64,000 nucleotides of DNA from positions 15,303-79,302 of the forward strand of contig JBIOXB010000063.1 of the NCBI GenBank assembly GCA_044869275.1. Reading direction: 5' to 3'. Shown piece by piece: positions 16,713 through 57,123 of the stretch; position 1 is the stretch's first letter; every line of letters begins with the position of its first letter. Below the pieces are notes generated by a model, which had not been told where the DNA came from, did not search any database, and saw nothing but the letters and a program-made list of their open reading frames with translations. Source of the stretch: a bacterium. Its GTDB lineage: Bacteria > Zhuqueibacterota > Zhuqueibacteria > Zhuqueibacterales > Zhuqueibacteraceae. The position numbers were made by a program, and so were the translations under genes.

Positions 16713-17229
16713 GGTTTCCTCATTTCATGATGACCACAACCGCAACGCGCGCTGTGGTCGGCCAAGCTGTTTACGTTTCACGGATTACGCCTCACGCGAT
16801 TCTCGCGGGGTAAAACGTAACGCCTCATAAAACGTCTGCCATTCTCAATAAAATGAATTTTCTCCCAAAGTCAATGGCGCGTCATTTGCAATTTTCCCGC
16901 CAAATTTCTCATTGACAAACGCTGGCCGAATGTGTAATTTCAACAAAGGATTTGGGAAATGGAGGCTGGGTTTTTTAAAGTTGGAGCATCGGCCGCCCTT
17001 TCCCAATTTCTGTTTTTAATCCTGGTTCAGAAATGAACACCACGGTTATGGGCCGTCCGGTATGCGTCATGATGAAACGCTTTATCATTCATGCCCGGCC
17101 ATAGCCCCGAGTCGTTTTAGTTTTTTTCCACGCGGTGACGGAGAGAGGACCCGTTGGCAAATGAACAGACGTACTCGGTGCCGGAGGCAGCCCGCATAAA
17201 TCCCGCAAAAGGCTGGAAGGAGGAGCGGG

Positions 17230-37815: not shown

Positions 37816-38091
37816 ATGTTGGAATTGATCGCGCTCTTTGTAGTCATCACGCTGGCGTACGTGGCGCTCAAAATGCTGCTGCTCATTTTCAAGGTGGGCT
37901 TTTGGGCATTGACGCTGCCGTTGCAGGTTTTGCTGGGTGTGGTCGCGGCGCTCGTCGCCGTGGTCCTGATCCTGCCGCTGGCATTGATGGCGGGATTGTT
38001 CGGGCTGGTGCTGGCACCCCTGGCCCTGCTTTTGCCGTTGTTCCCTATTCTCTTGATTGCCGGCGGGCTCTATTTGCTGCTGAAATCATGA
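37816..38091 (+). CDS. Small (91 aa) highly hydrophobic membrane protein with 3 predicted helices, heading STPK cassette 1.
   Basis: GGGAGG RBS 6 nt upstream of the ATG. MLELIALFVVITLAYVALKMLLLIFKVGFWALTLPLQVLLGVVAALVAVVLILPLALMAGLF.... Confidence 0.45.
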   Translation: MLELIALFVVITLAYVALKMLLLIFKVGFWALTLPLQVLLGVVAALVAVVLILPLALMAGLFGLVLAPLALLLPLFPILLIAGGLYLLLKS

Positions 38092-38316
38092 TTGCGATCC
38101 GGCCGGGGTGATGCTTGACATTTCTGAGAAAAATCTGTAACATTCGCCTGTCAGGATTACGCAAGAGGGCCGGACACCTCCTACCTAACTATCGCATAAA
38201 CTCGATTCCACTTTTTTCATCGTCGGCCGGGGGCCGTAACTGTCCTTTCTCACTGGACCCGGATCAAGCCCGGCGACGCCTGAGGTCTCGACCAGACACA
38301 ACAATGGGGCAGGATC

Positions 38317-41238
38317 ATGATCGGCCAGACGATTTCACATTACCAAATCATCGAAAAGCTCGGCCAGGGCGGCATGGGAAAGGTGTATAAAGCCTTCGAC
38401 ACCAAGCTCATCCGCACTGTCGCACTCAAGTTTCTGCCCGAGGAGGTGACCCGCGAGCCAGAGTCTATCGATCGCTTCATTACCGAAGCGCAAGCCGCCT
38501 CTGCGCTGGATCATGCCAATATCTGCGCCATTCACGAGATCAACGAAACCGAAGACGGGCAGATGTACATTGTGATGGCCTGCTATGAGGGCGAGACGCT
38601 CCAGCAGAAAGTCAGGAGCGGACTCCCATCGTTTGAAAGCGCGATCGAAATAGCTCTGCAAATTGCCCGCGGGCTGGAACGGGCACACGAGGCCGGCATT
38701 ATTCATCGCGACATCAAGCCGTCGAATATCATCATCACCAAGCGTGGCGAGGTCAAGATCATTGATTTCGGCCTGGCCAAGCTGACCATGGGGCAATCGC
38801 GCTTGACCAAGAGTGGCAACATGCCGGGCACACTGGCCTATATGTCCCCGGAACAGGTGCAGGGACAGCCGGTTGATTATCGCACGGATCTCTGGTCGCT
38901 GGGGGTGATCATGCACGAAATGCTGACCGGGCAATTGCCGTTCCGCGGCGAGAATGAGGCCGCCGTCGTCTATGCCATCGTCAACGAACCATTGCAGCCG
39001 ATCACGCATTTGCGCGAAGATATTCCCGTGGAATGGGCGAACCTCATTGGCAAGTGCCTGGAAAAGGATTTGTCGCTGCGCTACCTCGGCGCCGGCGAAG
39101 TCATTGCCGATGTGCTCCGGCTGAAAAGGCGGGCGGAAAAGCACGAAGGGGCGGAGCGAGGCAAAGAAAGCCGTACGCTGTCTGCCATCATGTTCACCGA
39201 CATGGTGGGTTACAGCGCACTCACCCAAAAAAACGAAGAGCTGGCGCTCGCGCTTCTCGACGAACACCGGCGGCTATTGCGGCCGTTGTTTCACGAGCAC
39301 GGCGGAAAAGAAATCGAAGCCGTCGGCGACGCTTTTTTTGTGGAATTTGCCAGCGCTTTGCAGGCCACGCGCTGCGCTGTCGGCATTCAAAGAAAATTAT
39401 TTGAGCGCAATCGCGAGGCCTCCGCCGACCGGCGCATCAAGCTTCGTATCGGCCTGCATATTGGTGACGTGGTGCACACCGGCAAGCACGTGCACGGTGA
39501 CGGCGTCAACATCGCCGCCCGCCTGGAGCCACTGGCGGCCCCAGGTGGAATTTGTCTCTCTCAAGATGTGGTGCGGCAAATTCAGAACAAAATCGGGCTG
39601 CCGCTGCGCAAACTGGGACGTGGCGAGTTGAAGAACATCGAGACGCCGCTGGAGGTTTACCGCATCGTTTTGCCCTGGGAGCGGAAACGGGCGCCTTTGC
39701 TTGAAAAGCTCAGCTTTGTTTTGCAACAGCGCAGGGCCTATGTGTATCGCTTCACCGCCATGGTGCTCGTCGCTGTCCTTCTGCCCGTGGCTGTTTATTT
39801 GGAATGGGGCCCCAAAACAGATTCACCTTCTCCCGACCTGAAACGGATCGCCGTGCTGCCTCTGACCAACATTAGCTCCGACCCGCACGATGAATACTTT
39901 GCGGAGGGCATGACCGAGGAGCTGATTGCCACGCTCTCGCGCGTCGGCCAATTTCGAGTGATCGCCCGCAATTCGGTGATGCGATACAAAGCGAGCAGCA
40001 AAACCACGGCAGAAATCGGGGCAGAGTTGCAAGTGGGAACGGTATTGACGGGCAGCGTGCGCAAATCCGGCAACTCTTTGCGCATTGCCGTGCAGCTCGT
40101 GGAAGCGCGCCGGCAGGAGCCTTTGTGGTCGCAGCAATATGACCGCGAATTCCAAGACATCTTTGCCATTCAAAGTGACATTGCCCGAAGCGTCGTGGAA
40201 GCCTTGCGGGTGAGGTTGGTTGACGATGAAGAGCTGCGTCTCGCAAGGCGGTCGCCGCGCAACATGGAAGCCTACACCCTCTACTTGCGCGGGCTTTATC
40301 ACTGGAACAAGCGAACGGCGAGCGACATCAAAAAGGGAATGGATTATTTCCATCAAGCGCTGGCAAAAGATTCAACCTATGCCCAGCCGTATGCCGGCTT
40401 GGCCGATTCTTACACGGTATTGGGAACGGTCGAATATGGCGAATTGCCGGCGGCGCAAGCGATGCTGCAAGCCAGGGAGGCGGCAGAGAAGGCGCTGGCA
40501 TTGGACCCGCAATGCGCCGAAGCACACGCCGCACGCGCGAACCTGTTTTATTCGTATGAATGGGATTGGCAGAATGCCGAGCGCGAATTCACGCGTGCCC
40601 TCGATCTGAATCCCAATTACGCGATCGCCCACCATTGGTATGCGCACTATTTATGCTCGCAGGGTCGGCTCAAGGAAGCCATGTTAGAGATCAGACACGC
40701 CCAAGAATTGGACCCGCTCTCCTTGATCATCAACACGGCAGTGGGAATGGTCTTCTATTACCAGCGCCAGCCCGAGCTGGCACTGGCGCAATTGCACAAA
40801 ACTCTGGAATTGGACTCCAGCTTCGCCGCCGCACTGTTGCAATTGGGAGTGGTGCACGTATATCAGCACCAGGCGGAAGAAGCCATGGCGGCATATCAAA
40901 GAGCCATAAATCTGATTGGCGCCAACCCCATCTCACTGAGTTTGCTGGCGCATGCCCAGGGCGTGTTCGGACGGCGCGCAGAGGCGAACAAGATTCTCAG
41001 TGAGTTTCGTAAACCTTCGATGCGCCGCTATGTTTCGGCTTCAGATATGGCGCTCGTTTATTTGGGATTGGGCGACAAAGATCAAGTTTTCGTCTGGCTG
41101 GATAAGGCGTGCGTCGAGCGTTCAAATTATCTCATTTATCTCAATGTGGAACCGTTGGTTGACAGCCTGCGTGAAGATCCGCGCTTCGCTGCTCTGTTGC
41201 AGAGGGTGGGAGTGCCTCGTTTGGTCAAATCATTGTGA
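38317..41238 (+). CDS. Multidomain Ser/Thr protein kinase fused to a class III adenylate/guanylate cyclase domain, a transmembrane helix, a TolB-N-like domain and C-terminal TPR repeats.
   Basis: Kinase motifs: GQGGMGKVYKA, HRDIKPSNI, DFG, SPE. Cyclase motifs: FTDMVGYSALT, VGDAFFVEF, RIGLHIGDV, GDGVNIAARLE. TM: MVLVAVLLPVAVYL. TolB-N-like: IAVLPLTNISSDPHDEYFAEGMTEELI. An upstream TTGACA-17-TAACAT promoter lies at ~38116. Confidence 0.85.
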   Translation: MIGQTISHYQIIEKLGQGGMGKVYKAFDTKLIRTVALKFLPEEVTREPESIDRFITEAQAASALDHANICAIHEINETEDGQMYIVMACYEGETLQQKVRSGLPSFESAIEIALQIARGLERAHEAGIIHRDIKPSNIIITKRGEVKIIDFGLAKLTMGQSRLTKSGNMPGTLAYMSPEQVQGQPVDYRTDLWSLGVIMHEMLTGQLPFRGENEAAVVYAIVNEPLQPITHLREDIPVEWANLIGKCLEKDLSLRYLGAGEVIADVLRLKRRAEKHEGAERGKESRTLSAIMFTDMVGYSALTQKNEELALALLDEHRRLLRPLFHEHGGKEIEAVGDAFFVEFASALQATRCAVGIQRKLFERNREASADRRIKLRIGLHIGDVVHTGKHVHGDGVNIAARLEPLAAPGGICLSQDVVRQIQNKIGLPLRKLGRGELKNIETPLEVYRIVLPWERKRAPLLEKLSFVLQQRRAYVYRFTAMVLVAVLLPVAVYLEWGPKTDSPSPDLKRIAVLPLTNISSDPHDEYFAEGMTEELIATLSRVGQFRVIARNSVMRYKASSKTTAEIGAELQVGTVLTGSVRKSGNSLRIAVQLVEARRQEPLWSQQYDREFQDIFAIQSDIARSVVEALRVRLVDDEELRLARRSPRNMEAYTLYLRGLYHWNKRTASDIKKGMDYFHQALAKDSTYAQPYAGLADSYTVLGTVEYGELPAAQAMLQAREAAEKALALDPQCAEAHAARANLFYSYEWDWQNAEREFTRALDLNPNYAIAHHWYAHYLCSQGRLKEAMLEIRHAQELDPLSLIINTAVGMVFYYQRQPELALAQLHKTLELDSSFAAALLQLGVVHVYQHQAEEAMAAYQRAINLIGANPISLSLLAHAQGVFGRRAEANKILSEFRKPSMRRYVSASDMALVYLGLGDKDQVFVWLDKACVERSNYLIYLNVEPLVDSLREDPRFAALLQRVGVPRLVKSL

Positions 41239-41268
41239 CAGGCCTTAATAGAATGCTTCTTGCACGTC

Positions 41269-42777
41269 ATGACTTCTGAACTCGAAAAAATGGAGAGCAT
41301 TTTCGAGCTGGCCGATCTGCTTGGCCGGCAGAATGATTTTCAGGAAATCCTGCGCCTGGTGGCACAGAAGGCAGCGAGCTTGTTGCAAGCCGAAACCGCT
41401 TCGATCATGATGATCAATCCGCAAACCCGGCACACGGTCAAGACGATTCTGCAAGAAGGTGATGGCGTGGAGGATCAGCGTTATCATACGGTGCACACGC
41501 ATGTCGGCGGCTGGGTGATCAAGCAGCAACAGCCTTTTGCCAGTGCCGATCTCAAAACCGATGCACGTTTTGCCAAGAAGCTCTTCGAGCATTCTCCCGT
41601 CGCCGCGGTGCTGGCCGCGCCGTTGCGCAGCGAGGGTGTGGTGCTCGGCGCTTTGATCCTGATGAATGCCGCAGCGGCGGTGCTGGAAACACAGCTGGCG
41701 GCGCTGCAAAAATTCGCCGCCGTGGTCTCGCCATTTTTGCGCAATGTACAAAAGCTGCAGCAGTATTTCGATGCCCCTTTGCCGGAAACCGCATTGTTGT
41801 CGAAATACGAAGCCGCGGGCTTGCTGGGCAAAAGCCGGAAGTACGTCGGAATGCTCAAGGCCATGGAGGCCGCTGCGCGTTGCGAGGTGCGCGTGTTGCT
41901 GGAGGGGCAAAGCGGGACCGGCAAGGAATTGATCGCCAAAGCCATCCATCGTTTCAGCCCGCGCGGCGGCCGGCCTTTTATCGCCATCGATTGCGGCGCG
42001 ATTGCGGAGCATCTGATCGAGAGTGAGCTCTTCGGTCACGTGAAAGGAGCCTTCACCGGCGCCAGCAGTGAGCGCACCGGCTTGCTGGAAGAGGGCCATC
42101 ACGGCACGCTGTTCATGGACGAGATTGCGAATCTTTCCTTGGAGATGCAGGCCAAGTTTATGCGCGTGCTGCAAACCGGCGAAATCCGGCCCGTGGGCGG
42201 AAATAAAACCCGGCTGGTCGACGTGCGTATTATTTCCGCGAGCAGCACCCCGCTGCGAAAATTGGTGGAGGCGCAAAAATTCCGTGAAGATTTGTTTTAT
42301 CGCCTGCACGTGTATCCGGTGCAGGTGCCTGCGCTCGATGAGCGCCAGGAGGATATTCCTCTTCTGGCCAATTATTTTTTGAAGAAATTCGCCGCGCAGC
42401 AGGGCAAGAAAGTGGAAGCCTTTCACGAAGAAATCGCGGAGTTCATGCAACAACGCCACTGGGCCGGCAATGTTCGCGAGTTGGAAAACTTCGTGGAACG
42501 CCTGGTTACCATGGTCACGCCGGAAACCACCGTCTTGGAGCATGCGCATCTGCCCGCCGAGCTGCAAAAAGAAATGAAGAAGTTCGCGGGCGCTTTGCCA
42601 GAGCCGGCGGCCAGCAAATCCCTGAACGAGTTCTTGTCCGAATATGAAGAGCAAGTGCTGCGGCAAGCTTTGCGAGCGCACGGCTGGAATCAATCCAAGA
42701 CCGCACGCGCGTTGAAAATCTCCGAACAAACTTTGCGCTATAAAATGGGGAAGATGGGAATTGCGAGGGGTTCGTAA
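41269..42777 (+). CDS. Sigma-54-dependent transcriptional activator (EBP) with an N-terminal GAF domain instead of a receiver domain, an AAA+ core and a C-terminal Fis-type HTH.
   Basis: GESGTGKE (Walker A), GAFTGA (sigma-54 contact loop), an ESELFGH-type motif, C-terminal QSKTARALKISEQTLRYKM. The N-terminal ~170 aa show a GAF-like pattern. Confidence 0.9.
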   Translation: MTSELEKMESIFELADLLGRQNDFQEILRLVAQKAASLLQAETASIMMINPQTRHTVKTILQEGDGVEDQRYHTVHTHVGGWVIKQQQPFASADLKTDARFAKKLFEHSPVAAVLAAPLRSEGVVLGALILMNAAAAVLETQLAALQKFAAVVSPFLRNVQKLQQYFDAPLPETALLSKYEAAGLLGKSRKYVGMLKAMEAAARCEVRVLLEGQSGTGKELIAKAIHRFSPRGGRPFIAIDCGAIAEHLIESELFGHVKGAFTGASSERTGLLEEGHHGTLFMDEIANLSLEMQAKFMRVLQTGEIRPVGGNKTRLVDVRIISASSTPLRKLVEAQKFREDLFYRLHVYPVQVPALDERQEDIPLLANYFLKKFAAQQGKKVEAFHEEIAEFMQQRHWAGNVRELENFVERLVTMVTPETTVLEHAHLPAELQKEMKKFAGALPEPAASKSLNEFLSEYEEQVLRQALRAHGWNQSKTARALKISEQTLRYKMGKMGIARGS

Positions 42778-43143: not shown

Positions 43144-44562
43144 ATGGAATGCTATCCCCAAAACTTCGAAACCCAAGCTTGGCAAGCAATCGCTGCTCCA
43201 GAAGCATGGCAAGAAGATCAGCGGACGCGCATGCATCCGGAGCTGGTGACACGCTTACTGCACAATGCCGCACCGCTCTTGCAGTTTGCGGACTGGCGCG
43301 TAACCAAGACCGGTCTGGGTTACGCTGAAACCGAGCTGCCACTCACGGTGAACACGACCAACCAACATGGCACACATCAAGCAGGTTTACTGTTGGCTGC
43401 CGCCGACTACACCGGTGGCGTCGCCATGGGCTCGTTGTTTCACGGTGTTCCGGTGATCGGCGTTCATCCGCAAACGGGTGAATTTGGCGCGGCGCTGTGG
43501 TCGTTTCAAGTCAATATGCGCTGGTTGCGCCCGAGCTGCCACACTTTGATCTGCAAGGCTTCCATAGCAGAAGAAAAGTGCCAGCAAATCGTCGCACGTT
43601 TTTTCGCGGGCAAGCGCATTATCGAGACGATCACGATTCAGATGGAAAACGATGGTGTGCCTGTCGCGCAAGCTGAATTCACCTACTGGGCGCGTGATGC
43701 CCGCCTGCTCAAAGAGGAAGCTTACCATGAAGAGAAAATTCACGTGCTCTACGATCACAAGATCAAATCCTCGGCGCTTTTGATCGCCGCTTTGCGCGCC
43801 ATGGAACAAGAAAAGCCCGCGCCTGAGCGGCTTTTTCACGATGCGCTTTCCCCCCAAATAATCGATGATCAGGCGCGGGTGCTGGCGAAGAGATTCTGCC
43901 AGCGCTTGCCACAGTTGCAATCACTCGTGGCTCTGCGCACGCAACACCTCGACACCTGTTTGCAGTCATTTCATGCCAGCGGCGGGCGGCAAGCCTTGCT
44001 GCTGGGGGCGGGTCTGGACTTGCGACCATTGCGTTTGCAGCTACGGGGGGTGAAGTGGTATGAATTGGATTTGCCCGCGATGCTTGCGCTGCGCGAGAAG
44101 CATCTCCACAGACTCGGCCTTGCCAGCCTGCCCGACCGGCGTCTGGTCGAGATAGACTTGCTCAACCATGACCTGGCACAACGCATGGCGGAGACACCCG
44201 GTTTTGACGCAACCCAGCCAACCTTCGTCATCTGGGAAGGCGGCTCCATGTATTTCAATCGTGCAGACTTCAACAAAATCCTCACCGGCCTTCGGCCATT
44301 GCTGCGGCATGAAAAATCCGAGGTTTGGATGGACTATGTTGACGAGAAGGTGATTGCGGGCATCACCGGCTGTGCGGCGGTCGAAGCGTTCATGGAAGGG
44401 ATGCAATGTTTGGGGGAGCCTTTTATCCATGGTCTCGACCCCGCCGCTCATGGCGCCACAAAACTCGGCCTGGAACTGATTTCCGACGAGCCGGCGGCGC
44501 AATTCGTCAGCACCGACGATCCAATTTATGAACTCTATCGTTTTGCCCGGCTGCGCCGGTGA
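43144..44562 (+). CDS. Fusion of a PaaI-like hotdog-fold thioesterase domain and a class I SAM-dependent O-methyltransferase (LCM/TIGR00027-like).
   Basis: N-terminal NQHGTHQAGLLLAAADYTGGVAMG (hotdog HGG-type motif). C-terminal ALLLGAGLDLRP...VIWEGGSMYF (leucine carboxyl methyltransferase-like SAM fold). The likely true start is MHPEL at 43228. Confidence 0.55.
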   Translation: MECYPQNFETQAWQAIAAPEAWQEDQRTRMHPELVTRLLHNAAPLLQFADWRVTKTGLGYAETELPLTVNTTNQHGTHQAGLLLAAADYTGGVAMGSLFHGVPVIGVHPQTGEFGAALWSFQVNMRWLRPSCHTLICKASIAEEKCQQIVARFFAGKRIIETITIQMENDGVPVAQAEFTYWARDARLLKEEAYHEEKIHVLYDHKIKSSALLIAALRAMEQEKPAPERLFHDALSPQIIDDQARVLAKRFCQRLPQLQSLVALRTQHLDTCLQSFHASGGRQALLLGAGLDLRPLRLQLRGVKWYELDLPAMLALREKHLHRLGLASLPDRRLVEIDLLNHDLAQRMAETPGFDATQPTFVIWEGGSMYFNRADFNKILTGLRPLLRHEKSEVWMDYVDEKVIAGITGCAAVEAFMEGMQCLGEPFIHGLDPAAHGATKLGLELISDEPAAQFVSTDDPIYELYRFARLRR

Positions 44563-44587
44563 TCGACATTCAATCACGGAGACGAAA

Positions 44588-45493
44588 ATGAACAGCGCGA
44601 ACGCCTCACTCACCGGCGCCCCTCCGCCGGAGCCAGTCCAGAAATACAATTGGCGAAATCTCCTATTCGTCGCTCTCTCCCCTCTGGTCGCGATAGCAGG
44701 TCTGCTGCTTTATTTGCCGAAATATGGTGTGCAGCGTGGCGATCTGTACAACTTCTTACTCATGTACGTGTTTACCGGCCTTTCCATTTCCGCCGGTTAT
44801 CATCGCTGCTTTGCGCACCACAGTTATCGCTGTCACACACTTGTAAAGTTGTTCTATCTCCTGTTTGGCGCCGCCGCCTTCCAAAACTCGGTGATCCGCT
44901 GGTCCGCCTATCACCGTCGGCACCATCGTTTCACGGATGAGCAGGAAGATCCTCACAACATCAGAGAAGGATTCTTTTGGGTATACTGGGGGTGGGTGGT
45001 GCATCACGACCAGCCCTCACGAAACCAATTCACAGTGCGCGACCTGGAAAAAGACAAGCTGATCATGTGGCAGCATCAATATTACCTGCCGATCGCTCTC
45101 CTCATGGGCTTGGTGTTGCCAGCGTTGCTCGGTGCAGTGCTAAGCAATGCGCTGGGCGGTTTGCTGTGGGGTGGCGTGCTGCGCACTGTGATTTCACAAC
45201 ACGCCACTTTTCTGATCAATTCGGCCTCGCACTGCTTTGGCACACAACCTTATTCGAAAAAAGACTCCTCACGTGATTGCTGGTGGCTGATGTTCGTCTC
45301 TTTTGGCGACAGCAAGCATAATTTCCACCACACCTTTGCGGGCGACTATCGCAACGGCTTGAAATGGTATGAATGGGATCCTTCCAAATGGTTCATCCGT
45401 GGTTTGAGTATGCTGGCCTTGACTTCGCATCTGCATCGCACACCCGCTGATCGCATCGCCCGGGCGCGGAAGCGGATTGAGGAAGGAAGATAA
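44588..45493 (+). CDS. Membrane acyl-CoA/acyl-lipid fatty acid desaturase (delta-9-like).
   Basis: Three histidine boxes: HRCFAHH, HRRHHRF, HNFHHTF. Multiple transmembrane segments. Confidence 0.85.
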   Translation: MNSANASLTGAPPPEPVQKYNWRNLLFVALSPLVAIAGLLLYLPKYGVQRGDLYNFLLMYVFTGLSISAGYHRCFAHHSYRCHTLVKLFYLLFGAAAFQNSVIRWSAYHRRHHRFTDEQEDPHNIREGFFWVYWGWVVHHDQPSRNQFTVRDLEKDKLIMWQHQYYLPIALLMGLVLPALLGAVLSNALGGLLWGGVLRTVISQHATFLINSASHCFGTQPYSKKDSSRDCWWLMFVSFGDSKHNFHHTFAGDYRNGLKWYEWDPSKWFIRGLSMLALTSHLHRTPADRIARARKRIEEGR

Positions 45494-45532
45494 CCGATGC
45501 CCTGCAACCTTGACAAGCAAGAGAATGGCGTG

Positions 45533-46645
45533 ATGCGCCCTCGTTTCGTCGGAAGTATCGGCGATTTATTGCAACAGAAGCCGAACAGGCCATTGCTGCG
45601 ATTTGCTCCAGCAAAATGGCTGCGCGGCGGACACCGCCAGACCCTTCTTGGATATCTGATGCCTGGGGCACAAAAGCCTCGCCAGACACGCTTGCACCTC
45701 GTGCCAGTGGGCGGTGGTGATCACATTGTACTGTGTGAAAATCTTCCCCACTTTGAAGAACCGGTGCGAGGAATAGTGCTGTTGATGCACGGGTTGGGAG
45801 GCGAAGCGAATTCTCCCTACATGCTGCGCATATCCTCGCGATTAAGGCAAAACGGCTTTGTCACTTTTCGCATGAACCATCGCGGTGCCGGTGAGGGTCG
45901 CGGCTTCGCAAAGGAGCTTTATCACGCGGGCAAGAGTGAGGACCTTGCCGCGGCGCTGGCAAAGATCGTGGCGCTTTATCCCCGGTTGCCTCTGTTGATG
46001 CTTGGTTTCTCACTCAGTGGTAACATCCTGCTCAAGCTTTTGGGGGAAAATCTGCATCCGCTTCCCCCAAGCCTGTGCGCAGCCATCGCTATTAATCCGC
46101 CAATCGACCTGGCCAAGTGTACGGCCTCTCTGCGCCGCCTGCCCAACCGCATCTACGATTACCATATTGTGCGTGCGCTCAAGAAAGTAATCAAAATGCG
46201 GCAACGCGACTATCCCGCGTTCCCTCAGATACCGTTGCCCCGATGCCTCACGATGCGCGAGTTCGATGAAATCTGCTCGGCGCCGCTGTGCGGCTTCAGA
46301 TCTGCGGCGGATTATTATGAAAAATGCAGTGCCAAGCAATTTTTGGCGGGCATTCGCCTCCCCACGCTCATCCTGGCAAGCGCTGATGATCCGTTTATTC
46401 CCAAAGAGTCATTCGAAGATCTGCCTGTAAACGACTTCATTACCCTGCACATAACCGATACGGGTGGGCACCTGGGATTTGTTTCTCATGAAAAGACAGT
46501 GCATGGGCACCAGCGCTGGATGGACTATGCTGTGACGGCCTATACGCAACATTGCATTGAATGGCACGCCGAAATTCAGGGAGAGGATCAGGCGGAAGCA
46601 TACGCCGCTTGCTTTCAAAACCCGGTTTTACTTTCACATTCCTAA
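45533..46645 (+). CDS. Alpha/beta-fold hydrolase, YheT/ABHD-like.
   Basis: N-terminal WLRGGHRQTLLGYL (YheT-type start). Nucleophile elbow GFSLSGN. ~370 aa. Confidence 0.75.
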   Translation: MRPRFVGSIGDLLQQKPNRPLLRFAPAKWLRGGHRQTLLGYLMPGAQKPRQTRLHLVPVGGGDHIVLCENLPHFEEPVRGIVLLMHGLGGEANSPYMLRISSRLRQNGFVTFRMNHRGAGEGRGFAKELYHAGKSEDLAAALAKIVALYPRLPLLMLGFSLSGNILLKLLGENLHPLPPSLCAAIAINPPIDLAKCTASLRRLPNRIYDYHIVRALKKVIKMRQRDYPAFPQIPLPRCLTMREFDEICSAPLCGFRSAADYYEKCSAKQFLAGIRLPTLILASADDPFIPKESFEDLPVNDFITLHITDTGGHLGFVSHEKTVHGHQRWMDYAVTAYTQHCIEWHAEIQGEDQAEAYAACFQNPVLLSHS

Positions 46646-46661
46646 CCTCAGGAGGTTGTCT

Positions 46662-47888
46662 ATGAAGTTCAAACTGTTCACCCTCAATCTGGTCCTTTTG
46701 TTCTTTCTGCAAATGGGCTGCAACAAGGACCTGCCGCTTTCACCGGATTTCAACGCGATGCAGGAATCGCAAGATTTCGAATCCCAGGACCTGCTGTCCG
46801 ATCAAGTTGCCGTGGGGAACCTCACCGTCATGACGCGCAACATTTACGTCGGCACCAACGTCGATTTGGTTTTGGGGGCGCAAAGCCCGGAAGAGGTGCC
46901 GGTGTTGGTGGCGCAGGCGTTTCAAACGCTGCTCGCCACCGACTTTCGTGAACGCGCGCAGGCGCTCGCCGACGAAATTAAACAGAATCGCCCCCATCTC
47001 ATCGGCTTGCAGGAGGTCTCGACCATCCGCACGCAATCGCCGGGTGACGCAGTGATCGGCGGTACCATCCCTGCCCAAAACGTGCTGTTTGATTACCTGG
47101 CCATCCTGCTTGAGGCTTTGCGCGCACGCGGCCTGAATTATCGCGTCGCCGGCATTATCGCCAATGCCGACGTCGAGGTGCCGATGCTGGTGGATCCCAG
47201 TACCATGGCCTTCGACGACGTCCGCCTCAGCGACTACGACGTGGTGCTCGCGCGGCATGACGTCAGCGTTTCAGACGTAATCCAGGCCAATTATCAAACC
47301 ATGCTCACGGTGCCATCTTTGGGCGCGCAAATTCCCCGCGGCTTTGTGGCCGTGACGGCCAGCGTCGGCAGCAATCGCATCCGCTTTGTCAATACTCACC
47401 TCGAACCGGCCTCGATTCCGGAATTGCTGCCGATTCAACTGGCTCAGGCGCAAGAGCTGGCTGCCGCGCTGCAAAATGAACGTCTGCCTGTGGTTTTGGT
47501 GGGCGACCTGAACACGCAAGCGATCACCGGCGCCACGTATCAATTTCTTGCCACGCAAGGCTATGTCGACGTCTGGACGCAAAAAAGGAATCGTGATGAA
47601 GGCGAGGGCAACACCTGCTGTCACGCTGCCGACTTGCGCAACACCACGGTGCACCTCGACCAGCGCATCGACTTGATTCTGGCGAAAAACAGCACGGAGG
47701 ACGATGATCGCGCGCTGCAGGACGGCGACGATCGCTTCTTCAAAGGCGTAGTGGCGAGAGTGGTGGGCGACGAGCTGCGCGATCGCACGCCTTCCGGCCT
47801 GTGGCCCTCGGACCACGCCGGAGTGGTGGCGCGCTTTCGCACGAATGAAGCACACGACGAGGTTCTGGCGATGACCACGGCGGAATAG
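46662..47888 (+). CDS. Endonuclease/exonuclease/phosphatase (EEP) family lipoprotein.
   Basis: Lipobox LQMGC after the signal peptide. EEP motifs LIGLQEV, VVLVGDLN, WPSDHAGVVARF. GGAGG RBS upstream. Confidence 0.75.
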   Translation: MKFKLFTLNLVLLFFLQMGCNKDLPLSPDFNAMQESQDFESQDLLSDQVAVGNLTVMTRNIYVGTNVDLVLGAQSPEEVPVLVAQAFQTLLATDFRERAQALADEIKQNRPHLIGLQEVSTIRTQSPGDAVIGGTIPAQNVLFDYLAILLEALRARGLNYRVAGIIANADVEVPMLVDPSTMAFDDVRLSDYDVVLARHDVSVSDVIQANYQTMLTVPSLGAQIPRGFVAVTASVGSNRIRFVNTHLEPASIPELLPIQLAQAQELAAALQNERLPVVLVGDLNTQAITGATYQFLATQGYVDVWTQKRNRDEGEGNTCCHAADLRNTTVHLDQRIDLILAKNSTEDDDRALQDGDDRFFKGVVARVVGDELRDRTPSGLWPSDHAGVVARFRTNEAHDEVLAMTTAE

Positions 47889-48024
47889 AGTGGCTTTTCT
47901 TTCACCTCTCGCCGCGCTGTTGCCCCGGGGGAAGCTTCATGAGGCAACAGCGCGGCCTTTCATCAAACCGCGGAATTTGCTTCAACCGGACAAGACAGGA
48001 TTTCGAAACGCAGGAAGCCCGATC

Positions 48025-48648
48025 ATGGCGAAAAACACTTCACTCCCTTCGACCACAAGCAGCGCCCAGGTTGCGGACCTATTTGCGCGAAAAATTTCGC
48101 GCGCCGATTTTCTCAAGCGATTGTTTCTGCTCTCCGGCGCCGCCTGGACGGCTTGCACACCGCTCCGTATCGCGTTGAAGACTTATCCCGACCGCTTCGA
48201 TGCCGATCACGAGCTGAGAGAAAAACTGTTACAGGCGTTTGTGGCGGCCGTGATTCCGGGCGTTCCTCTCGACGCCACACATAGCACGCGTATGCTCACC
48301 GACGATTTTTATCCATTTCATTCCTATTGCGGCTTTTTTACGGCAGATCTGGCGCAAAGAAGTATGAAGCTTTATAGCCATGATCGTTTTGACCAGCTTT
48401 CAATCGAGCAACGCACACAAGTCATCCAGCATGGATTGCAGGCGGACGCCACCACTGCCCGACTGTATCAAGCCGCGATCTACATGACGCAACTTTCGTT
48501 CTATGCAAGCATTTATGACGACAAAGCTGGCTGCACTCTGATTGATTTTCACGGCACGAACGCAGGCTTTCCCGCGGCAGAAGTGTGTTATACGAATAGA
48601 GAGATGCCGTTAGCGCAAGAGGCAACAAGCGACGGCAACCCTCCGTGA
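48025..48648 (+). CDS. Gluconate 2-dehydrogenase subunit-3-like small protein with a twin-arginine signal.
   Basis: SRADFLKRLFLLSGAAWTA (Tat motif S/T-R-x-x-F-L-K). ~207 aa. Confidence 0.65.
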   Translation: MAKNTSLPSTTSSAQVADLFARKISRADFLKRLFLLSGAAWTACTPLRIALKTYPDRFDADHELREKLLQAFVAAVIPGVPLDATHSTRMLTDDFYPFHSYCGFFTADLAQRSMKLYSHDRFDQLSIEQRTQVIQHGLQADATTARLYQAAIYMTQLSFYASIYDDKAGCTLIDFHGTNAGFPAAEVCYTNREMPLAQEATSDGNPP

Positions 48649-48692
48649 CCCCTGGAGGTCTCAGATTCTTGTAACTTCAGGTACATATTAAA

Positions 48693-48915
48693 GGCAAAAC
48701 TATTCGGGGCAAAACAATTAAACACAAAAGAAACTTTGAATAGTTTTACCATTAATAGTTTTGCCATTTGGGGAAAACACCTGATCGTCACAATTTCTCT
48801 AAAACATAGGAAGTTTGAAATGAACAGTGATTTACGACTAACGATTTGCGATTTCGGATGTTGATGTATCCTGCGTAAATCGACAATCGTAAATCGGCAA
48901 TCGTAAATCAACGGC
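48693..48915. repeat. AT-rich 285-bp spacer with dyad and tandem repeats: GGCAAAACTATT / AATAGTTTTGCC inverted pair, and 3 tandem 14-mers CGTAAATC(G/A)(A/G)C(A/G)(A/G)(T/C) with an inverted copy upstream.
   Basis: cgtaaatcgacaat | cgtaaatcggcaat | cgtaaatcaacgg at 48874-48914. gatttacg (the reverse complement) at 48830-48837. ggcaaaactatt at 48693 vs aatagttttgcc at 48763. Confidence 0.6.
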
Positions 48916-48933
48916 ATTGCACGAGAGGCCATC

Positions 48934-52467: not shown

Positions 52468-54687
52468 ATGATCGGCCAAACCATTTCACATTACAGAATT
52501 TTGGAAGAGCTAGGCCGTGGCGGCATGGGCGTGGTGTACAAAGCCCTCGATACCAGGCTCAACCGCACCGTTGCGCTCAAATTTCTCCCGCCGGATTTAA
52601 CGCGCGATCAGGAAGCCATTGATCGTTTTATCAACGAGGCGCAAGCGGCTTCGGCGCTCGATCACACGAATATCTGCACCATTTACGAGATCAACGAGAC
52701 GGAAGTTGGGGACATGTTCATTTGCATGGCTCACTATGCCGGTGAAACGCTGCAACAAAAAGTGGCCAATGGCCGGTTGTCAGTGGCCAGTGCAATTGGC
52801 ATTGCCTTGCAGGCGGCCCAAGGCTTGGAGAGAGCGCATGAGGCCGGCATCACGCATCGCGATATCAAGCCTTCCAACCTCGTCATCACTTCGCGCGGCG
52901 AGGTCAAGATCATTGATTTCGGTCTGGTCAAGCTGGCCGAACCTTCCCGTTCAACCAAAGCTTCGGGGACCGTGGCTTATATGTCGCCGGAGCAGGTACA
53001 AGGCAAACCGGTGGATCAGCGCACGGACATTTGGTCACTCGGCGTTGTGCTCTATGAAATGCTCACCGGACGATTGCCCTTCCTCGGCGAAAGCGAGCAA
53101 GTGGTGATGTATGCCATTGTCCATGAAGACGCCGGCCCGATCCCGGTGGCATCGGGGGGCAGCGGCGTGCCCATGGCATTGGAACAAATCGTCAACACCG
53201 CCATGGCAAAGAATCCCGACGAACGCTACCAGCATGTGGAGGAGATGATTGCCGCCCTGCGCGCGCTCAAGCACAAGCTCGAATCCGGGCAGTTCAACGC
53301 AGCTCAAGCTGCCATCGCGGTGTTGCCTTTTGTAGATCTGAGCCCGCAAAAAGATCAAGAGTACTTTTGTGACGGCATGACCGAGGAACTCATCGCCGCC
53401 TTGGCGAAGATCGAAGGCTGGCGGGTGGTTTCAAAAACCTCGGCATTTGCGTGCAAAGGGAAAGAACAAGATCTCCGCAGGGTCGGTGAGTTGCTCGGCG
53501 TCAAATATGTTCTTGAAGGCAGCGTGCGCAAGGCCGGTGATAGGCTGCGTATCGCAACGCAGCTTACCAACGTCGCCGACGGCTTTCCGCTTTGGTCGGA
53601 GCTTTATGATCGCCAGCTGCACGACGTGTTCGCCATTCAGGATGATATCGCCAAGGCGATTGTCAACAAGCTGAGGCCGGCGGGAGAGCTGGCGCCCCGG
53701 CAGGTGGTGCGTTACACGCAAAGCCCTGCCGTTTACAATTTGTATTTACAGGGGCGCTTTCACTTGAACAAGCGCACTGAAGCCGGTCTGCAAAAAGGCG
53801 TAGCCTTTTGCGAGCAAGCCATTGCTCTGGAGCCGGCCTATGCTCCGGCGTACGCGGGCCTGGCGGACGGTTTTGCCTTACTCGGCTTTCAGGGCTTTGT
53901 GGCGCCCAAAGAAACGATACCCAAAGCCAAAGCCGCAGCCGAAAAGGCGCTGGCCATTGACGAGTCTCTGGCCGAGGCGCATACCTCGCTCGGGTGCATT
54001 CGGGCCGTGTATGATTGGGATTGGGATGCATCCGCCCACGAATTTGAGCGGGCTATCGCCCTCAATCCCAACTCTGCAATGGCACATTATTGGTATGCCG
54101 TGTGGTATTTGTTGCTCACCGGCCAGTTCGATCTGTGTTCCACTGAAATCAAAAAAGCGCAAGAGCTGGATCCGTTGTCCATGGTTTTGCGCGCGGGCAT
54201 TGGTTGGCAGCTTTACTTTGCGCGGCAGTTCGAGCAGGCGGCGCAGGCACTCGAGCGCGCTTTGGAAATGGATGAATACTACGTTTTTGCCCGTGACCTG
54301 CTCGGCCAGGTCTACGCGCAGCTCGGCAGGTATCAGCAGGCTATCACTGAGCTTGAACACGCCGTCGCTCTTTCCCGCGGCTGCGCGCTGAGCCTGCGCG
54401 CGCTGGGCCATGCTTATGGCCTTGCCGGCAAACGCGCGGAAGCGCAGCACGTGCTCGACGAATTGCTGGTGCGCGGACAGCGCAGCTATGTCTCGTCGTA
54501 CGATATTGCGCTGGTTTATGCCGGCATGGGAGACAAAGATCAGGCTCTCACCTGGTTGGAAAAGGCCTACGGGGAGCACAACGGTTGGCTGGGCTTTCTC
54601 AACGTGGAGCCGCGGCTCGACAATTTGCGCGAGGAGGCGAGATTCGCGGTGCTGCTCAGAAACGTGGGATTGCATGAGTTTCTATGA
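52468..54687 (+). CDS. Ser/Thr protein kinase with a TolB-N-like domain and C-terminal TPR repeats. Paralog of 38317..41238 but lacking the cyclase domain.
   Basis: Kinase motifs GRGGMGVVYKA, HRDIKPSNL, DFG. TolB-N-like IAVLPFVDLSPQKDQEYFCDGMTEELIAAL. TPR block. The N-terminus MIGQTISHY[QR]I[IL]E[KE]LG[QR]GGMG is near-identical to the paralog. A TTGACA-18-TATATT promoter lies at 52280-52309. Confidence 0.85.
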   Translation: MIGQTISHYRILEELGRGGMGVVYKALDTRLNRTVALKFLPPDLTRDQEAIDRFINEAQAASALDHTNICTIYEINETEVGDMFICMAHYAGETLQQKVANGRLSVASAIGIALQAAQGLERAHEAGITHRDIKPSNLVITSRGEVKIIDFGLVKLAEPSRSTKASGTVAYMSPEQVQGKPVDQRTDIWSLGVVLYEMLTGRLPFLGESEQVVMYAIVHEDAGPIPVASGGSGVPMALEQIVNTAMAKNPDERYQHVEEMIAALRALKHKLESGQFNAAQAAIAVLPFVDLSPQKDQEYFCDGMTEELIAALAKIEGWRVVSKTSAFACKGKEQDLRRVGELLGVKYVLEGSVRKAGDRLRIATQLTNVADGFPLWSELYDRQLHDVFAIQDDIAKAIVNKLRPAGELAPRQVVRYTQSPAVYNLYLQGRFHLNKRTEAGLQKGVAFCEQAIALEPAYAPAYAGLADGFALLGFQGFVAPKETIPKAKAAAEKALAIDESLAEAHTSLGCIRAVYDWDWDASAHEFERAIALNPNSAMAHYWYAVWYLLLTGQFDLCSTEIKKAQELDPLSMVLRAGIGWQLYFARQFEQAAQALERALEMDEYYVFARDLLGQVYAQLGRYQQAITELEHAVALSRGCALSLRALGHAYGLAGKRAEAQHVLDELLVRGQRSYVSSYDIALVYAGMGDKDQALTWLEKAYGEHNGWLGFLNVEPRLDNLREEARFAVLLRNVGLHEFL

Positions 54688-56697: not shown

Positions 56698-56745
56698 TTG
56701 GATTACTGGATTATGGTATTGTTGGCGGTGTTTAGGGGTGTTATT

Positions 56746-57123
56746 TTATACCAATGGAAAATTGAAGCACATAAAGTCGGAATAGGGGAAAATAGCCATG
56801 ATGGAATACACGCGCTTAAGGACAAGGCTTCCAGTCGAATGATTTCGAGATGGGCGGTGAGCGCCAGCCAATCCCCAAAGTTCAGACCAACGTGGCTGGT
56901 CATTCACGCGCAAGCCCTTGGTCAGGCCGACGTCGAGCACGTGGCGATTGTGGTGGGTGGCGACCGAGATCGCAGTGATCCCTCCTTCCACCACGCCGTA
57001 CCCTTGAAAAGGATAGCGGTCGAGTTTAAATACCTGCAACTCGCCGAGATTTGCGAGAGATTGTCCGGAGTCCTGGATCAGAAACTCCCGCACCGTCTTG
57101 CTGCACAATTGTAGACTGTCCAC
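56746..57123 (-). pseudogene. Possible gene remnant in the lower-GC island boundary.
   Basis: 125-aa ORF with no start context or motif, in a ~50% GC block. The opposite strand carries a similar orphan ORF (56698..57114). Either may be a fragment. Confidence 0.2.

Follow-up and report, generated by a model that had tools for sequence, protein, structure and literature searches.

Whether a cyclic nucleotide made by a receptor kinase is read by the transcriptional activator encoded next to it is the question raised by a gene pair in a bacterium of the Zhuqueibacteraceae (GenBank assembly GCA_044869275.1, contig JBIOXB010000063.1). The pair lies in a 64,000-nucleotide stretch of DNA (positions 15,303 to 79,302 of the forward strand), which is the window within which all positions below are counted. 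The original prediction proposed that STPK1, a kinase fused to a class III nucleotidyl cyclase, signals through its cyclase product to the GAF domain of the adjacent sigma-54 activator, EBP1. The relevant features are as follows.

38115..38143, + strand: match to a sigma-70-type promoter consensus (TTGACA-17-TAACAT), some 175 nt before STPK1; weak and consensus-only (3 sites against 2.9 expected)
38317..41238, + strand: STPK1, receptor-type bifunctional protein of 973 aa (open reading frame and translation, Pfam; identical protein on record as P0001)
38341..39084, + strand: Hanks-type Ser/Thr kinase domain of STPK1, aa 9-256 (Pfam Pkinase, E 2.5e-56; motifs)
39184..39633, + strand: class III nucleotidyl cyclase domain of STPK1, Pfam Guanylate_cyc aa 290-439 (full domain about aa 285-460)
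39736..39813, + strand: predicted single membrane helix of STPK1, aa 474-499 (hydropathy scan)
39829..41211, + strand: predicted extracytoplasmic sensor module of STPK1, TolB-N-like at about aa 505-630 and TPR at about aa 650-965 (TIGR02800, TPR Pfam families)
41269..42777, + strand: EBP1, 502-aa GAF / sigma-54 AAA+ / HTH_8 activator (Pfam)
41335..41727, + strand: GAF domain of EBP1, aa 23-153 (Pfam GAF, E 5.6e-14; family alignments)
41824..42321, + strand: sigma-54 interaction (AAA+) domain of EBP1, aa 186-351 (Pfam Sigma54_activat, E 1.4e-63)
52468..54687, + strand: STPK2, paralogous kinase-TolB-like/TPR protein of 739 aa that lacks both the cyclase and the membrane helix
55108..56697, + strand: EBP2, paralogous GAF/sigma-54 activator of 529 aa, 65% identical to EBP1

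Anatomy of the two cassettes

From N to C terminus, STPK1 consists of a Hanks kinase, a class III cyclase, a membrane helix, a TolB-N-like region and TPRs; Pfam, TIGR02800 and hydropathy thus bear out the claim that a cyclase lies between the kinase and a membrane-anchored TolB-N-like/TPR module. By its motifs, STPK1 is a Hanks-type Ser/Thr kinase with a complete active-kinase set (G-loop aa 16-21, GQGGMG at 16; VALK at 35, with K38; HRD 130-132; DFG 150-152; SPE 177-179), and kinase activity is predicted. The hydrophobic segment sits just C-terminal of the cyclase and is preceded by RRAYVYR, from which an N-in topology is predicted; hydropathy scans place a helix at the equivalent position in 53 of 56 kinase-cyclase-TolB/TPR homologues. 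Beyond the helix, aa 510-630 resemble the N-terminal stretch of the TolB profile TIGR02800 (E 3.6e-6), with HilA/CadC-type matches as well, and TPR Pfam families occupy the C-terminal third of the protein. Homologues of STPK1 carry the JGI name 'TolB-like protein'.

The EBP1 start codon at 41269 lies exactly 30 nt past the STPK1 stop, as had been stated, no above-chance terminator was found between the two genes, and they are probably co-transcribed. The downstream gene also proves to encode the GAF-sensor activator that had been described: judged by its domains and motifs, EBP1 is a sigma-54 enhancer-binding protein (EBP), with Sigma54_activat behind the GAF domain, Walker A at 213 (GQSGTGKE), GAFTGA at 260, Walker B at 281 (LFMDE) and a C-terminal HTH_8 (E 2.4e-12).

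A second, paralogous cassette lies in the same window. STPK2 was said to be cyclase-less, which Pfam confirms, and its kinase motifs are complete, as in STPK1; its TolB-like/TPR module is 43% identical to that of STPK1 and, because the membrane helix is also missing, is predicted to be cytoplasmic. The EBP2 GAF domain has a 28-aa insertion and keeps every family-invariant GAF position. Catalytic motifs are complete in both kinases and both EBPs of the window.

The cyclase domain and its predicted substrate

Guanylate_cyc (PF00211) matches STPK1 with 56.1 bits against a gathering cut-off of 21.9 (E 4.6e-15), and the best solved relatives of the domain are class III cyclases (3mr7, E 4e-32; Ma1120, E 3e-18). 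The cyclase motifs claimed from the sequence are found: FTDMVGYS at 293, EAVGD at 334, RIGLHIGDV at 377 and GKHVHGDGVNIAARLE at 389. D295 (FTD) and D338 (GD) are the metal-binding aspartates, and N398 and R402, aligned to A164 and R168 of Ma1120, are the transition-state residues. A cyclase is present in 60 of the 120 best STPK1 homologues, which come chiefly from Ignavibacteria, Bacteroidota and KSB1-like MAGs, and the kinase-cyclase fusion is a large uncharacterised family. Each of these four residues is kept in 59 of the 60 cyclase-bearing homologues at an overall identity of only 45-48%, and AIMFTDMVGYS, GDAFFVE and HGDGVNIAARLEP are nearly invariant; the pattern is that of strong purifying selection on the domain, which looks catalytically competent, being complete by residues.

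The catalytic core had been called intact, which stands for the metal-binding and transition-state residues and does not stand for the substrate pair. E334 (codon 39316-39318) and H391 (codon 39487-39489) align to K101 and D157 of Ma1120; the alignment of substrate-specifying residues, proposed together with the prediction, finds no Lys/Asp pair for ATP, so that STPK1 lacks the adenylate cyclase signature. The Glu of the guanylate cyclase signature is present at the first position, and His stands at the second, where Cys, Ser, Thr or Gly is usual. Among the 60 homologues the first position is Glu in 57 and the second is His in 36, Asn in 12, Tyr in 6, Gln in 3, Lys in 2 and Glu in 1. The K101E substitution in Ma1120 lowers adenylate cyclase activity by 92% at pH 7.5 and raises guanylate cyclase activity 3.6-fold, and D157H alone lowers both activities; the same study reports a Dictyostelium guanylate cyclase with His as its second base-specifying residue (PMC4215837). 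Because the base-specifying pair is Glu334/His391 and not Lys/Asp, GTP (with cGMP as product) is predicted over ATP, and the STPK1 cyclase looks guanylate-cyclase-like, not cAMP-forming.

Instead of acting as an enzyme in vivo, the domain could mediate dimerisation or transmit the signal from membrane helix to kinase. Dimerisation is obligatory for class III cyclase domains, the STPK1 domain lies on the necessary signal path between helix and kinase, the base-specifying pair is non-canonical, and a related architecture encoded beside another EBP (locus L091, Pkinase-cyclase-AAA_16-TPR) has a degenerate cyclase, with N for the first metal Asp and ED for GD. A purely structural module would, however, have no need of catalytic residues, and the retention of the metal Asp pair, Asn and Arg within nearly invariant motifs makes this explanation highly improbable.

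Several known protein classes resemble STPK1 in part. Animal receptor guanylate cyclases of the GC-A/NPR-A type likewise combine a single-pass receptor with an extracellular sensor, a protein-kinase fold and a class III cyclase with Glu at the first base-specifying position. The STPK1 order is reversed (kinase-cyclase-membrane helix-sensor from the N terminus), its kinase keeps all catalytic motifs whereas that of GC-A/NPR-A is a pseudokinase, its sensor is TolB-like/TPR and its second specificity residue is His rather than Cys; the likeness implies no common descent of the fusion. Kinase/cyclase fusions are already known as curated annotation: TIGR03903 (NCBIfam/TIGRFAMs), 'TOMM system kinase/cyclase fusion protein', also has an N-terminal Ser/Thr kinase, a class III cyclase and TPRs, an architecture that the L091 protein resembles. 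STPK1 was rejected as a member, scoring 150 bits against an equivalog cut-off of 705.75 for a profile of 1267 positions, and TIGR03903 members are not known to carry a membrane helix or a TolB-like domain. No functional study of TIGR03903 was found in the literature searched. Cyclase-TolB-like-TPR proteins belong to the same cyclase subfamily as STPK1 (3mr7, as above; TIGR04510 matches aa 286-448), and three of them (P0064, P0091 and P0096) share its C-terminal module, with 50-53% identity over 70% of STPK1. Unlike STPK1 they have no kinase domain, and 3mr7 has the canonical Lys/Asp pair. TIGR04510 bears the name 'putative peptide modification system cyclase'.

The GAF domain and the neighbours of the activator family

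A relay in which the STPK1 cyclase product is bound by the EBP1 GAF domain and turns the activator on or off, with or without a contribution from phosphorylation, has precedents in its logic: in Anabaena CyaB1/CyaB2, PDE2/5/6/10 and Leptospira Lcd1, a GAF domain reads a cyclic nucleotide (cNMP) that a class III cyclase makes. The output of those proteins is an enzyme, whereas EBP1 is a sigma-54 activator whose cNMP binding is only putative. By profile, the EBP GAF family is similar in sequence class to these readers, and its best structural matches include GAFs of the PDE/cyclase type (the cAMP-binding Lcd1 GAF 5w10, E 9e-9; PDE5, PDE6 and PDE10). This similarity is generic, since the same profile also matches the haem-binding GAF of DevS and the ligand-free GAF 4mcw, and GAFs encoded near kinase-cyclases also match PtsP GAFs; the Nlh1 GAF is matched too (E 1e-6).

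The PDE and CyaB GAFs and Lcd1 carry the NKFDE motif or a close variant, and mutation of any NKFDE residue abolished cGMP binding by PDE2 GAF-B (PMC11977230). Absence of such pocket residues had been set beforehand as evidence that would count against the relay, and the motif is absent from both EBPs of the window: at the positions of PDE5 N286, K287, F295, D299 and E300, EBP1 reads N-A-V-Q-L (1/5) and EBP2 D-I-P-A-L (0/5). Across 40 family members, N occurs in 24, K in 9, F in 22, D in 18 and E in none. R291 and T293, which contact the base in CyaB2 GAF-B, align to T43 and S45 in a weak alignment, and these positions vary in the EBP family. The family has signatures of its own, in EBP1 QNDFQE at 21, NPQTRHTVKT at 50, GWVIK at 81 and DARF at 98.

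Genomic context bears on the relay from both directions. Besides the close spacing and the catalytically complete cyclase, the gene pair itself speaks for it, as kinase-cyclase and GAF-EBP are kept together in P0003 and P0004, at 78% and 63% identity respectively. In P0006, a close STPK1 relative, an internal deletion has removed the cyclase core and left the last ~45 residues of the domain, yet an EBP with 66% identity to EBP1 still follows; like cassette 2, P0006 argues against the relay. Farther afield, another GAF protein lies within 2.5 kb of the kinase-cyclase at three of six distant loci: L097 and L004 have a GAF-PP2C beside or near it, and L098 has a GAF histidine kinase 11 nt downstream. 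The GAFs of these neighbours carry N-K..F..D-Q, and their proximity could mean a cyclase-GAF link, which would tell against a kinase-only reading. The other three distant loci have no GAF neighbour, nor does P0064.

A census of the EBP family covered 86 other loci, of which the 57 with at least 2.5 kb of upstream sequence were counted for neighbours; the loci are not phylogenetically independent, many coming from metagenome Ga0247727, so that shared ancestry inflates the counts. A Ser/Thr kinase gene without a cyclase ends at most 1 kb upstream on the same strand in 27 of the 57, about half of these loci have no adjacent kinase, and a kinase open reading frame occurs somewhere in 47 loci of the family. 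The commonest neighbour of the EBP family is thus a kinase gene, usually without a cyclase. Any cyclase domain is found in only 3 of the 86 loci, and none in the other 83 even with a broadened HMM. One of the three is the degenerate L091 cyclase. The others are Reg_prop/Y_Y_Y-HisKA-HATPase-REC-Guanylate_cyc sensors encoded immediately upstream of the EBP in L010 and, as a tandem pair, in L009, and no kinase was found within 10 kb of the EBP in L009. These independent cyclase-bearing neighbours favour the relay, and a hybrid HK-REC-cyclase in this position suits a cyclic-nucleotide input better than a kinase input; their predicted substrate residues, however, are R/D and disagree with the E/H of STPK1. 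No GAF column distinguishes cyclase-paired from kinase-only-paired EBPs.

A cyclic nucleotide is diffusible, which limits what genomic context alone can say against the relay. Across about 90 related loci the EBP usually neighbours a kinase that has no cyclase, so the relay from STPK1 to EBP1 is possible without being favoured; with the anatomy, the competent-looking cyclase and the conserved pair on one side, and the cyclase-less neighbours, EBP2, P0006 and the missing NKFDE on the other, we regard it as unlikely.

Kinase and activator as a possible unit

The kinases next to the EBPs vary in their C-terminal modules, with TolB/TPR in 20, followed by NB-ARC or AAA_16 with TPR, a PD40 propeller or TPR only; the kinase domain is their common element and the sensor part varies by locus. 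Kinase-domain and neighbouring-GAF pairwise identities correlate over 29 adjacent pairs (Mantel r 0.69, inflated by shared ancestry; 0 of 2000 permutations reach it), compared with 0.74 for GAF against AAA+ inside one protein, and kinase and EBP diversified together. MAGs labelled KSB1, Calditrichota and Cytophagia also contain the pair of kinase and GAF-EBP genes.

Our preferred reading, which we hold tentatively and at a little under even confidence, is that STPK1-EBP1 is one of two paralogous cassettes of a Hanks kinase with a dedicated GAF/sigma-54 activator, in which the cyclase gives the receptor an accessory second output. The TolB-like/TPR module, predicted to lie outside the membrane in STPK1 and in the cytoplasm in STPK2, would sense a signal that changes how the kinase dimerises. 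The kinase would then phosphorylate the N-terminal GAF region of its own EBP, with the invariant NPxTxxTxKT segment as candidate site, and phosphorylation would relieve or impose GAF control of the AAA+ ring and hence of sigma-54 transcription of target genes. The EBP1 GAF domain is a candidate reader of the STPK1 nucleotide, and the comparative data do not single EBP1 out. No precedent for a Hanks kinase phosphorylating a GAF-EBP was found in the literature searched.

The kinase and activator might also have no direct link, with the EBP1 GAF domain sensing an unrelated metabolite, as NifA senses 2-oxoglutarate and NorR senses NO, and the kinase merely co-expressed or part of the EBP regulon. 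NifA (334 bits for EBP1 and 353 for EBP2) and NorR, both metabolite- or gas-sensing GAF-EBPs, are the best NCBIfam matches, the roughly half of family loci with enough upstream sequence that have no adjacent kinase fit such independence, and the genes downstream of the EBP differ between relatives, with no conservation. NifA identity (TIGR01817) is rejected, though, at 333.7 and 352.6 bits against an equivalog cut-off of 528.85; a regulon relation predicts sigma-54 promoters upstream of kinase genes, where they are not enriched; and tight same-strand pairs recur with varied sensor modules and correlated divergence. We consider the absence of a direct link quite unlikely. EBP1 is identical in its GAF, AAA+, HTH_8 architecture to NifA, NorR, FhlA and Aquifex Nlh1/Nlh2; the EBP1 family differs from them in its own invariant signatures, QNDFQE and NPxTxxT, and in having a Hanks kinase as genomic partner rather than nif, nor or hyc genes.

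A bolder and distinctly doubtful extension would join both outputs: STPK1 would fire phosphorylation and cGMP, and EBP1 would be a coincidence detector needing NPxTxxT phosphorylation together with nucleotide in a non-NKFDE GAF pocket. The kinase/GAF-EBP pair would then be an unrecognised 'Hanks-kinase two-component system' with a dedicated sigma-54 factor, widespread in KSB1/Calditrichota-type bacteria, into which cyclases have been plugged repeatedly (as kinase-cyclase fusion and as HK-REC-cyclase).

In Myxococcus xanthus, Hanks kinases feed sigma-54 activators or other transcription factors, among them FHA-domain EBPs and Pkn8/Pkn14-MrpC (PMC6213207; Jelsbak et al. 2005, cited in PMC4320627). 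Those EBPs read phosphothreonine through the FHA domain, whereas no FHA family is among the Pfam matches of EBP1 or EBP2 (E <= 0.01), and the Myxococcus kinases and EBPs form no conserved two-gene operon, unlike the kinase-EBP cassette. Bacterial Hanks-type kinases are generally described as having no dedicated transcription factors (PMC6213207). A conserved operon of kinase and GAF-EBP would be an exception to this, and would offer a kinase-to-sigma-54 pathway that is simple and open to testing, in phyla that have been little studied. Only a handful of bacterial cGMP signalling systems are known; if the product is cGMP, Glu-type receptor-kinase cyclases, present in half of the 120 best STPK1 homologues, would widen bacterial cGMP signalling considerably. 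Two cassettes in one genome, together with the natural cyclase-deletion variant P0006, are built-in controls for separating kinase from cyclase output.

Two kinase/activator cassettes and their surroundings

The window carries two cassettes in which a Ser/Thr kinase gene is followed by a gene for a sigma-54 activator with a GAF domain (EBP), namely STPK1/EBP1 and, downstream, STPK2/EBP2.

Features of the two cassettes
38317-41238, + strand: STPK1, ORF of 973 aa
STPK1 aa 9-256: protein kinase domain (Pfam, E 2.5e-56)
STPK1 aa 290-439: class III cyclase domain, Guanylate_cyc (Pfam, E 4.6e-15; 56 bits, gathering score 21.9)
STPK1 aa 474-499: single membrane helix (hydropathy scan)
STPK1 aa 510-630: N-terminal part of TolB (TIGR02800, E 3.6e-6)
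STPK1 C-terminal third: TPR, many Pfam families
ATG at 41269, 30 nt past the STPK1 stop codon: EBP1, 502 aa, with GAF (aa 23-153), sigma-54 AAA+ (aa 186-351, E 1.4e-63) and HTH_8 domains (Pfam)
52468-54687: STPK2, second cassette
55108-56697: EBP2, second cassette

ORF, Pfam, motif and spacing data confirm the genes and domains originally predicted at STPK1/EBP1. The kinase motifs of STPK1 are complete (G-loop at 16, VALK with K38, HRD at 130, DFG at 150, SPE at 177), and residues 504-816 resemble the C-terminal modules of HilA/CadC-type regulators in a family profile match. Walker A, GAFTGA and Walker B motifs are found in the AAA+ domain of EBP1, and no terminator above chance lies between the two genes. 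EBP1 and EBP2 are 65% identical over their full length and have NifA and NorR as best NCBIfam matches, below the equivalog cut-offs. Identity between STPK1 and STPK2 is 59% for the kinase domains and 43% for the TolB-like/TPR modules. STPK2 lacks a cyclase, as expected, and also a membrane helix, which had escaped the original prediction; its kinase runs directly into the TolB-like/TPR module, and this predicts a cytoplasmic location for the module, in contrast to the predicted extracytoplasmic one of its STPK1 counterpart.

Other features of the window
51-3194: protein with SprA_N (type IX secretion)
16875-16890: closest match to the sigma-54 -24/-12 element across the window, TGGCGCGTCATTTGCA, with 1 mismatch
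31595-34327, - strand: 910-aa STAND-type protein with DUF4062, NACHT and TPR
37816-38091: 91-aa, very hydrophobic ORF directly upstream of STPK1, no Pfam match
43144-50487, EBP1 strand, downstream of EBP1: LCM-type methyltransferase, fatty-acid desaturase, alpha/beta hydrolase, Exo_endo_phos, a protein of unknown function and GMC oxidoreductase
56698-58777, directly after EBP2: 138-aa ORF that matches no family, plus an encapsulin shell protein (Linocin_M18, E 2e-19)

The SprA_N protein points to an FCB-group organism, and related MAG contigs, labelled KSB1, Calditrichota and Cytophagia, are consistent with this. In a relative whose STPK1 homologue is 78% identical, the STAND-type protein is split into two genes (571 and 318-330 aa) and the position of the 91-aa ORF is kept (L002/L003); a sigma-54-like sequence inside this ORF (TGGCCCTGCTTTTGC at 38021) is probably a chance match. 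The cluster downstream of EBP1 looks lipid-related, and its genes are not conserved beside the EBP in the 78% relative or in other relatives. The 138-aa ORF and encapsulin could be EBP2 targets; no convincing sigma-54 promoter was seen at their locus. Scanning the window for -24/-12 elements gave 60 matches with at most 2 mismatches against 47 +/- 7 expected, and the best of these is intergenic and precedes a row of polyprenyl synthetase/ApbE/epimerase/heptosyltransferase genes. At 29-67 kinase/EBP loci, no region is enriched in sites: upstream of the kinase 1 was seen where 1.5 were expected, in the spacer between kinase and EBP 2 for an expected 1.0, and downstream of the EBP 6 for an expected 4.0. 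These promoter scans yielded no assignable regulon. Pfam searches of ~45 ORFs in the window found no cNMP_binding domain, cNMP phosphodiesterase or second cyclase.

The STPK1 cyclase and its family

Among solved structures the STPK1 cyclase is closest to 3mr7 (E 4e-32) and to Ma1120 of Mycobacterium avium (E 3e-18), both class III cyclase domains, and residues were assigned through the Ma1120 alignment and the published roles of K101, D157, A164, A167 and R168 (PMC4215837). The catalytic core, which the original prediction called intact, does retain the metal-binding aspartates D295 and D338 and the transition-state residues N398 and R402, whereas its base-specifying pair is E334/H391 and not the Lys/Asp of adenylate cyclases. 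The K101E substitution in Ma1120 lowers adenylate cyclase activity by 92% at pH 7.5 and raises guanylate cyclase activity 3.6-fold, and a Dictyostelium guanylate cyclase has His at the second specificity position (PMC4215837). Among 60 cyclase-bearing homologues (45-80% identical overall), D295, D338, N398 and R402 each occur in 59 and Glu334 in 57, while the second specificity position is H in 36, N in 12, Y in 6, Q in 3, K in 2 and E in 1; the AIMFTDMVGYS, GDAFFVE and HGDGVNIAARLEP blocks are nearly invariant. Judged from sequence, it is very probable that this domain has enzymatic activity, and a preference for GTP over ATP is predicted by inference.

These 60 homologues are half of the 120 best database matches to STPK1; 56 have the order kinase-cyclase-TolB/TPR, with a membrane helix ahead of the TolB/TPR module in 53 of the 56. 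Most family members are ~965-975 aa long, share 45-48% identity with STPK1 and are labelled as Ignavibacteria, Bacteroidota, KSB1 or just "bacterium". Three relatives lack the kinase (P0064, P0091, P0096), and the cyclase-less homologues divide into 25 with a membrane helix and 36 without. STPK1 differs from the NCBIfam family TIGR03903, "TOMM system kinase/cyclase fusion protein", for which it scores 150 bits, far below the cut-off of 705.75.

The nearest cyclase-less relative of STPK1 is P0006.

L094:6517-9003: P0006, followed by a GAF-EBP

P0006 is 66% identical to STPK1 in the kinase and 62% from ~aa 420 onward; it keeps the membrane helix and the last ~45 residues of the cyclase domain, with LKEIQNKSELPRRESGHGKLKNT aligned to STPK1 420-441, and the catalytic core is gone. 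This retained tail indicates that at least this cyclase-less relative arose by loss. Domain-wise identities had suggested insertion of a cyclase into a kinase-TolB/TPR ancestor, a reading set aside once P0006, with its cyclase tail, proved to be a deletion derivative; for the clade as a whole the change may have gone either way. Its downstream EBP is 66% identical to EBP1, equalling the EBP of the cyclase-bearing P0004 in similarity, so that P0006 reads as a natural "cyclase knockout" that retains its GAF-EBP. Under the originally predicted cNMP relay, the EBP1 GAF domain would read the product of the STPK1 cyclase; retention of the EBP after this deletion argues against it, as does the second cassette without a cyclase. 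No GAF columns convincingly separate cyclase-paired from kinase-only-paired EBPs.

The GAF domain of the activators

A PDB search with the EBP1 GAF sequence alone was marginal (best E 0.013), and a 40-sequence profile was used instead. This profile matches 4mcw, the GAF domain of an HD-GYP protein (E 1e-10), the cAMP-binding Lcd1 GAF 5w10 (E 9e-9), the GAF domains of PDE5, PDE6 and PDE10, that of the Aquifex EBP Nlh1 (E 1e-6) and haem-binding DevS GAFs. Such mixed matches place the EBP GAF in the broad PDE/FhlA sequence class, membership of which does not point to a particular ligand. The NKFDE motif is reported to mark cNMP-binding GAF domains, and mutation of any of its residues abolishes cGMP binding in PDE2 (PMC11977230). 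The expected cNMP-binding pocket is not borne out at these positions, where alignment to PDE5 GAF-A gives N-A-V-Q-L in EBP1 and D-I-P-A-L in EBP2; among 40 EBP family members N occurs in 24, K in 9, F in 22, D in 18 and E in none. The missing motif counts against the relay. The NKFDE motif itself makes no ligand contact, and Lcd1 has N-R-F-D-L at the aligned positions, so its absence makes the relay less likely without refuting it. The base-contacting residues of CyaB2 map onto the EBP1 GAF only through a weak alignment.

Kinase and activator as a conserved pair

The gene pair is conserved among close relatives of STPK1: downstream of both P0003 (78% identity; two assemblies) and P0004 (63%) lies an EBP with 67-83% identity to EBP1. 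No EBP follows six more distant kinase-cyclase genes (~41-49% identity). Another GAF protein lies near three of these six, on contigs of Ignavibacteria/Bacteroidota type.

GAF proteins near distant kinase-cyclase genes
L097, 4603-5910: GAF-PP2C (SpoIIE) phosphatase, 91 nt upstream
L004, 4351-5655: GAF-PP2C (SpoIIE) phosphatase, 2.3 kb upstream
L098, 9137-10312: GAF histidine kinase, 11 nt downstream, with a LuxR-type response regulator

These GAF neighbours speak for a relay. Their domains are only ~20% identical to the EBP1 GAF, with GW..K, D.RF and a conserved KT in common; they carry N-K..F..D-Q, and the structures they match in the PDB are generic ones (4mcw, PtsP, PDE5, DevS). No GAF neighbour occurs at P0064 (kinase-less cyclase-TolB/TPR) or P0075 (a cyclase-less kinase from Eisenbacteria).

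The EBP GAF has nearly invariant and distinctive signatures (LGQQNDFQE, MINPxTxxTxKT, GW..K, D.RF), and searching with them gave 7 genome and 80 metagenome loci, or 86 after L007, from the 78% relative, was set aside. A single-sequence phmmer scan found cyclases in 0/86, which was discarded as too insensitive since Pfam showed one in L091; family and broadened HMM scans replaced it. With the Pfam and HMM re-scans, cyclase domains occur in three of the 86 loci and nothing further was found.

EBP loci with cyclase domains
L009, 55-9644: two tandem Reg_prop/Y_Y_Y-HisKA-HATPase-REC-Guanylate_cyc hybrid sensors immediately upstream of the EBP; no kinase within 10 kb
L010, 4247-8911: one such sensor directly upstream of the EBP; a kinase-TolB/TPR gene farther upstream
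L091, 2514-6977, - strand: 1488-aa Pkinase-Guanylate_cyc-AAA_16-TPR protein, divergent from the family EBP

The L009/L010 sensors (1548-1624 aa) are Bacteroides-type hybrid two-component proteins with a beta-propeller and a class III cyclase as output in place of an AraC HTH. Their position directly upstream of a family EBP favours the relay; the specificity pair of their cyclases is Arg/Asp, against Glu/His in STPK1, and this disagreement in predicted specificity, together with the cyclase-less majority of EBP loci, tells against it. The L091 cyclase is degenerate (first metal Asp to Asn, GD motif to ED), and the protein resembles the TIGR03903 architecture. On balance, it is possible but rather unlikely that the EBP1 GAF reads the STPK1 cyclase product.

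Kinases are the more regular companions of the EBP. Upstream sequence of 2.5 kb or more is available at 57 loci. Counted from stop-to-stop ORFs on short metagenome contigs, and across loci that are non-independent with many from one sample, a Ser/Thr kinase ORF in the same orientation ends no more than 1 kb ahead of the EBP in 27 of these 57, and some kinase ORF is present somewhere in the locus in 47. A TolB/TPR module occurs in 20 of the 27 adjacent kinases, and the remainder bear NB-ARC or AAA_16 plus TPR, a PD40 propeller, or TPR only; the sensor modules vary and the kinase domain is therefore the common element. Kinase-domain and GAF identities are correlated across 29 adjacent pairs (Mantel r 0.69, 0/2000 permutations), to which shared ancestry contributes, and the GAF-AAA+ correlation inside one protein is 0.74.

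Literature searches found no functional description of the STPK1-type or TIGR03903 architecture, and nothing specific on a bacterial kinase-cyclase-TolB/TPR protein or on Hanks-kinase control of a GAF-EBP. The individual domains are all known; neither their combination nor the pairing of kinase with EBP seems to have been described before. Most likely, what is conserved as a functional unit is a Hanks kinase together with a GAF/sigma-54 activator. We infer that the most economical mechanism would be for the kinase to phosphorylate the EBP directly, which is quite possible but falls somewhat short of probable. The cyclase is best read as a genuine second output, probably GTP-preferring, of a single sub-lineage among these receptor kinases.
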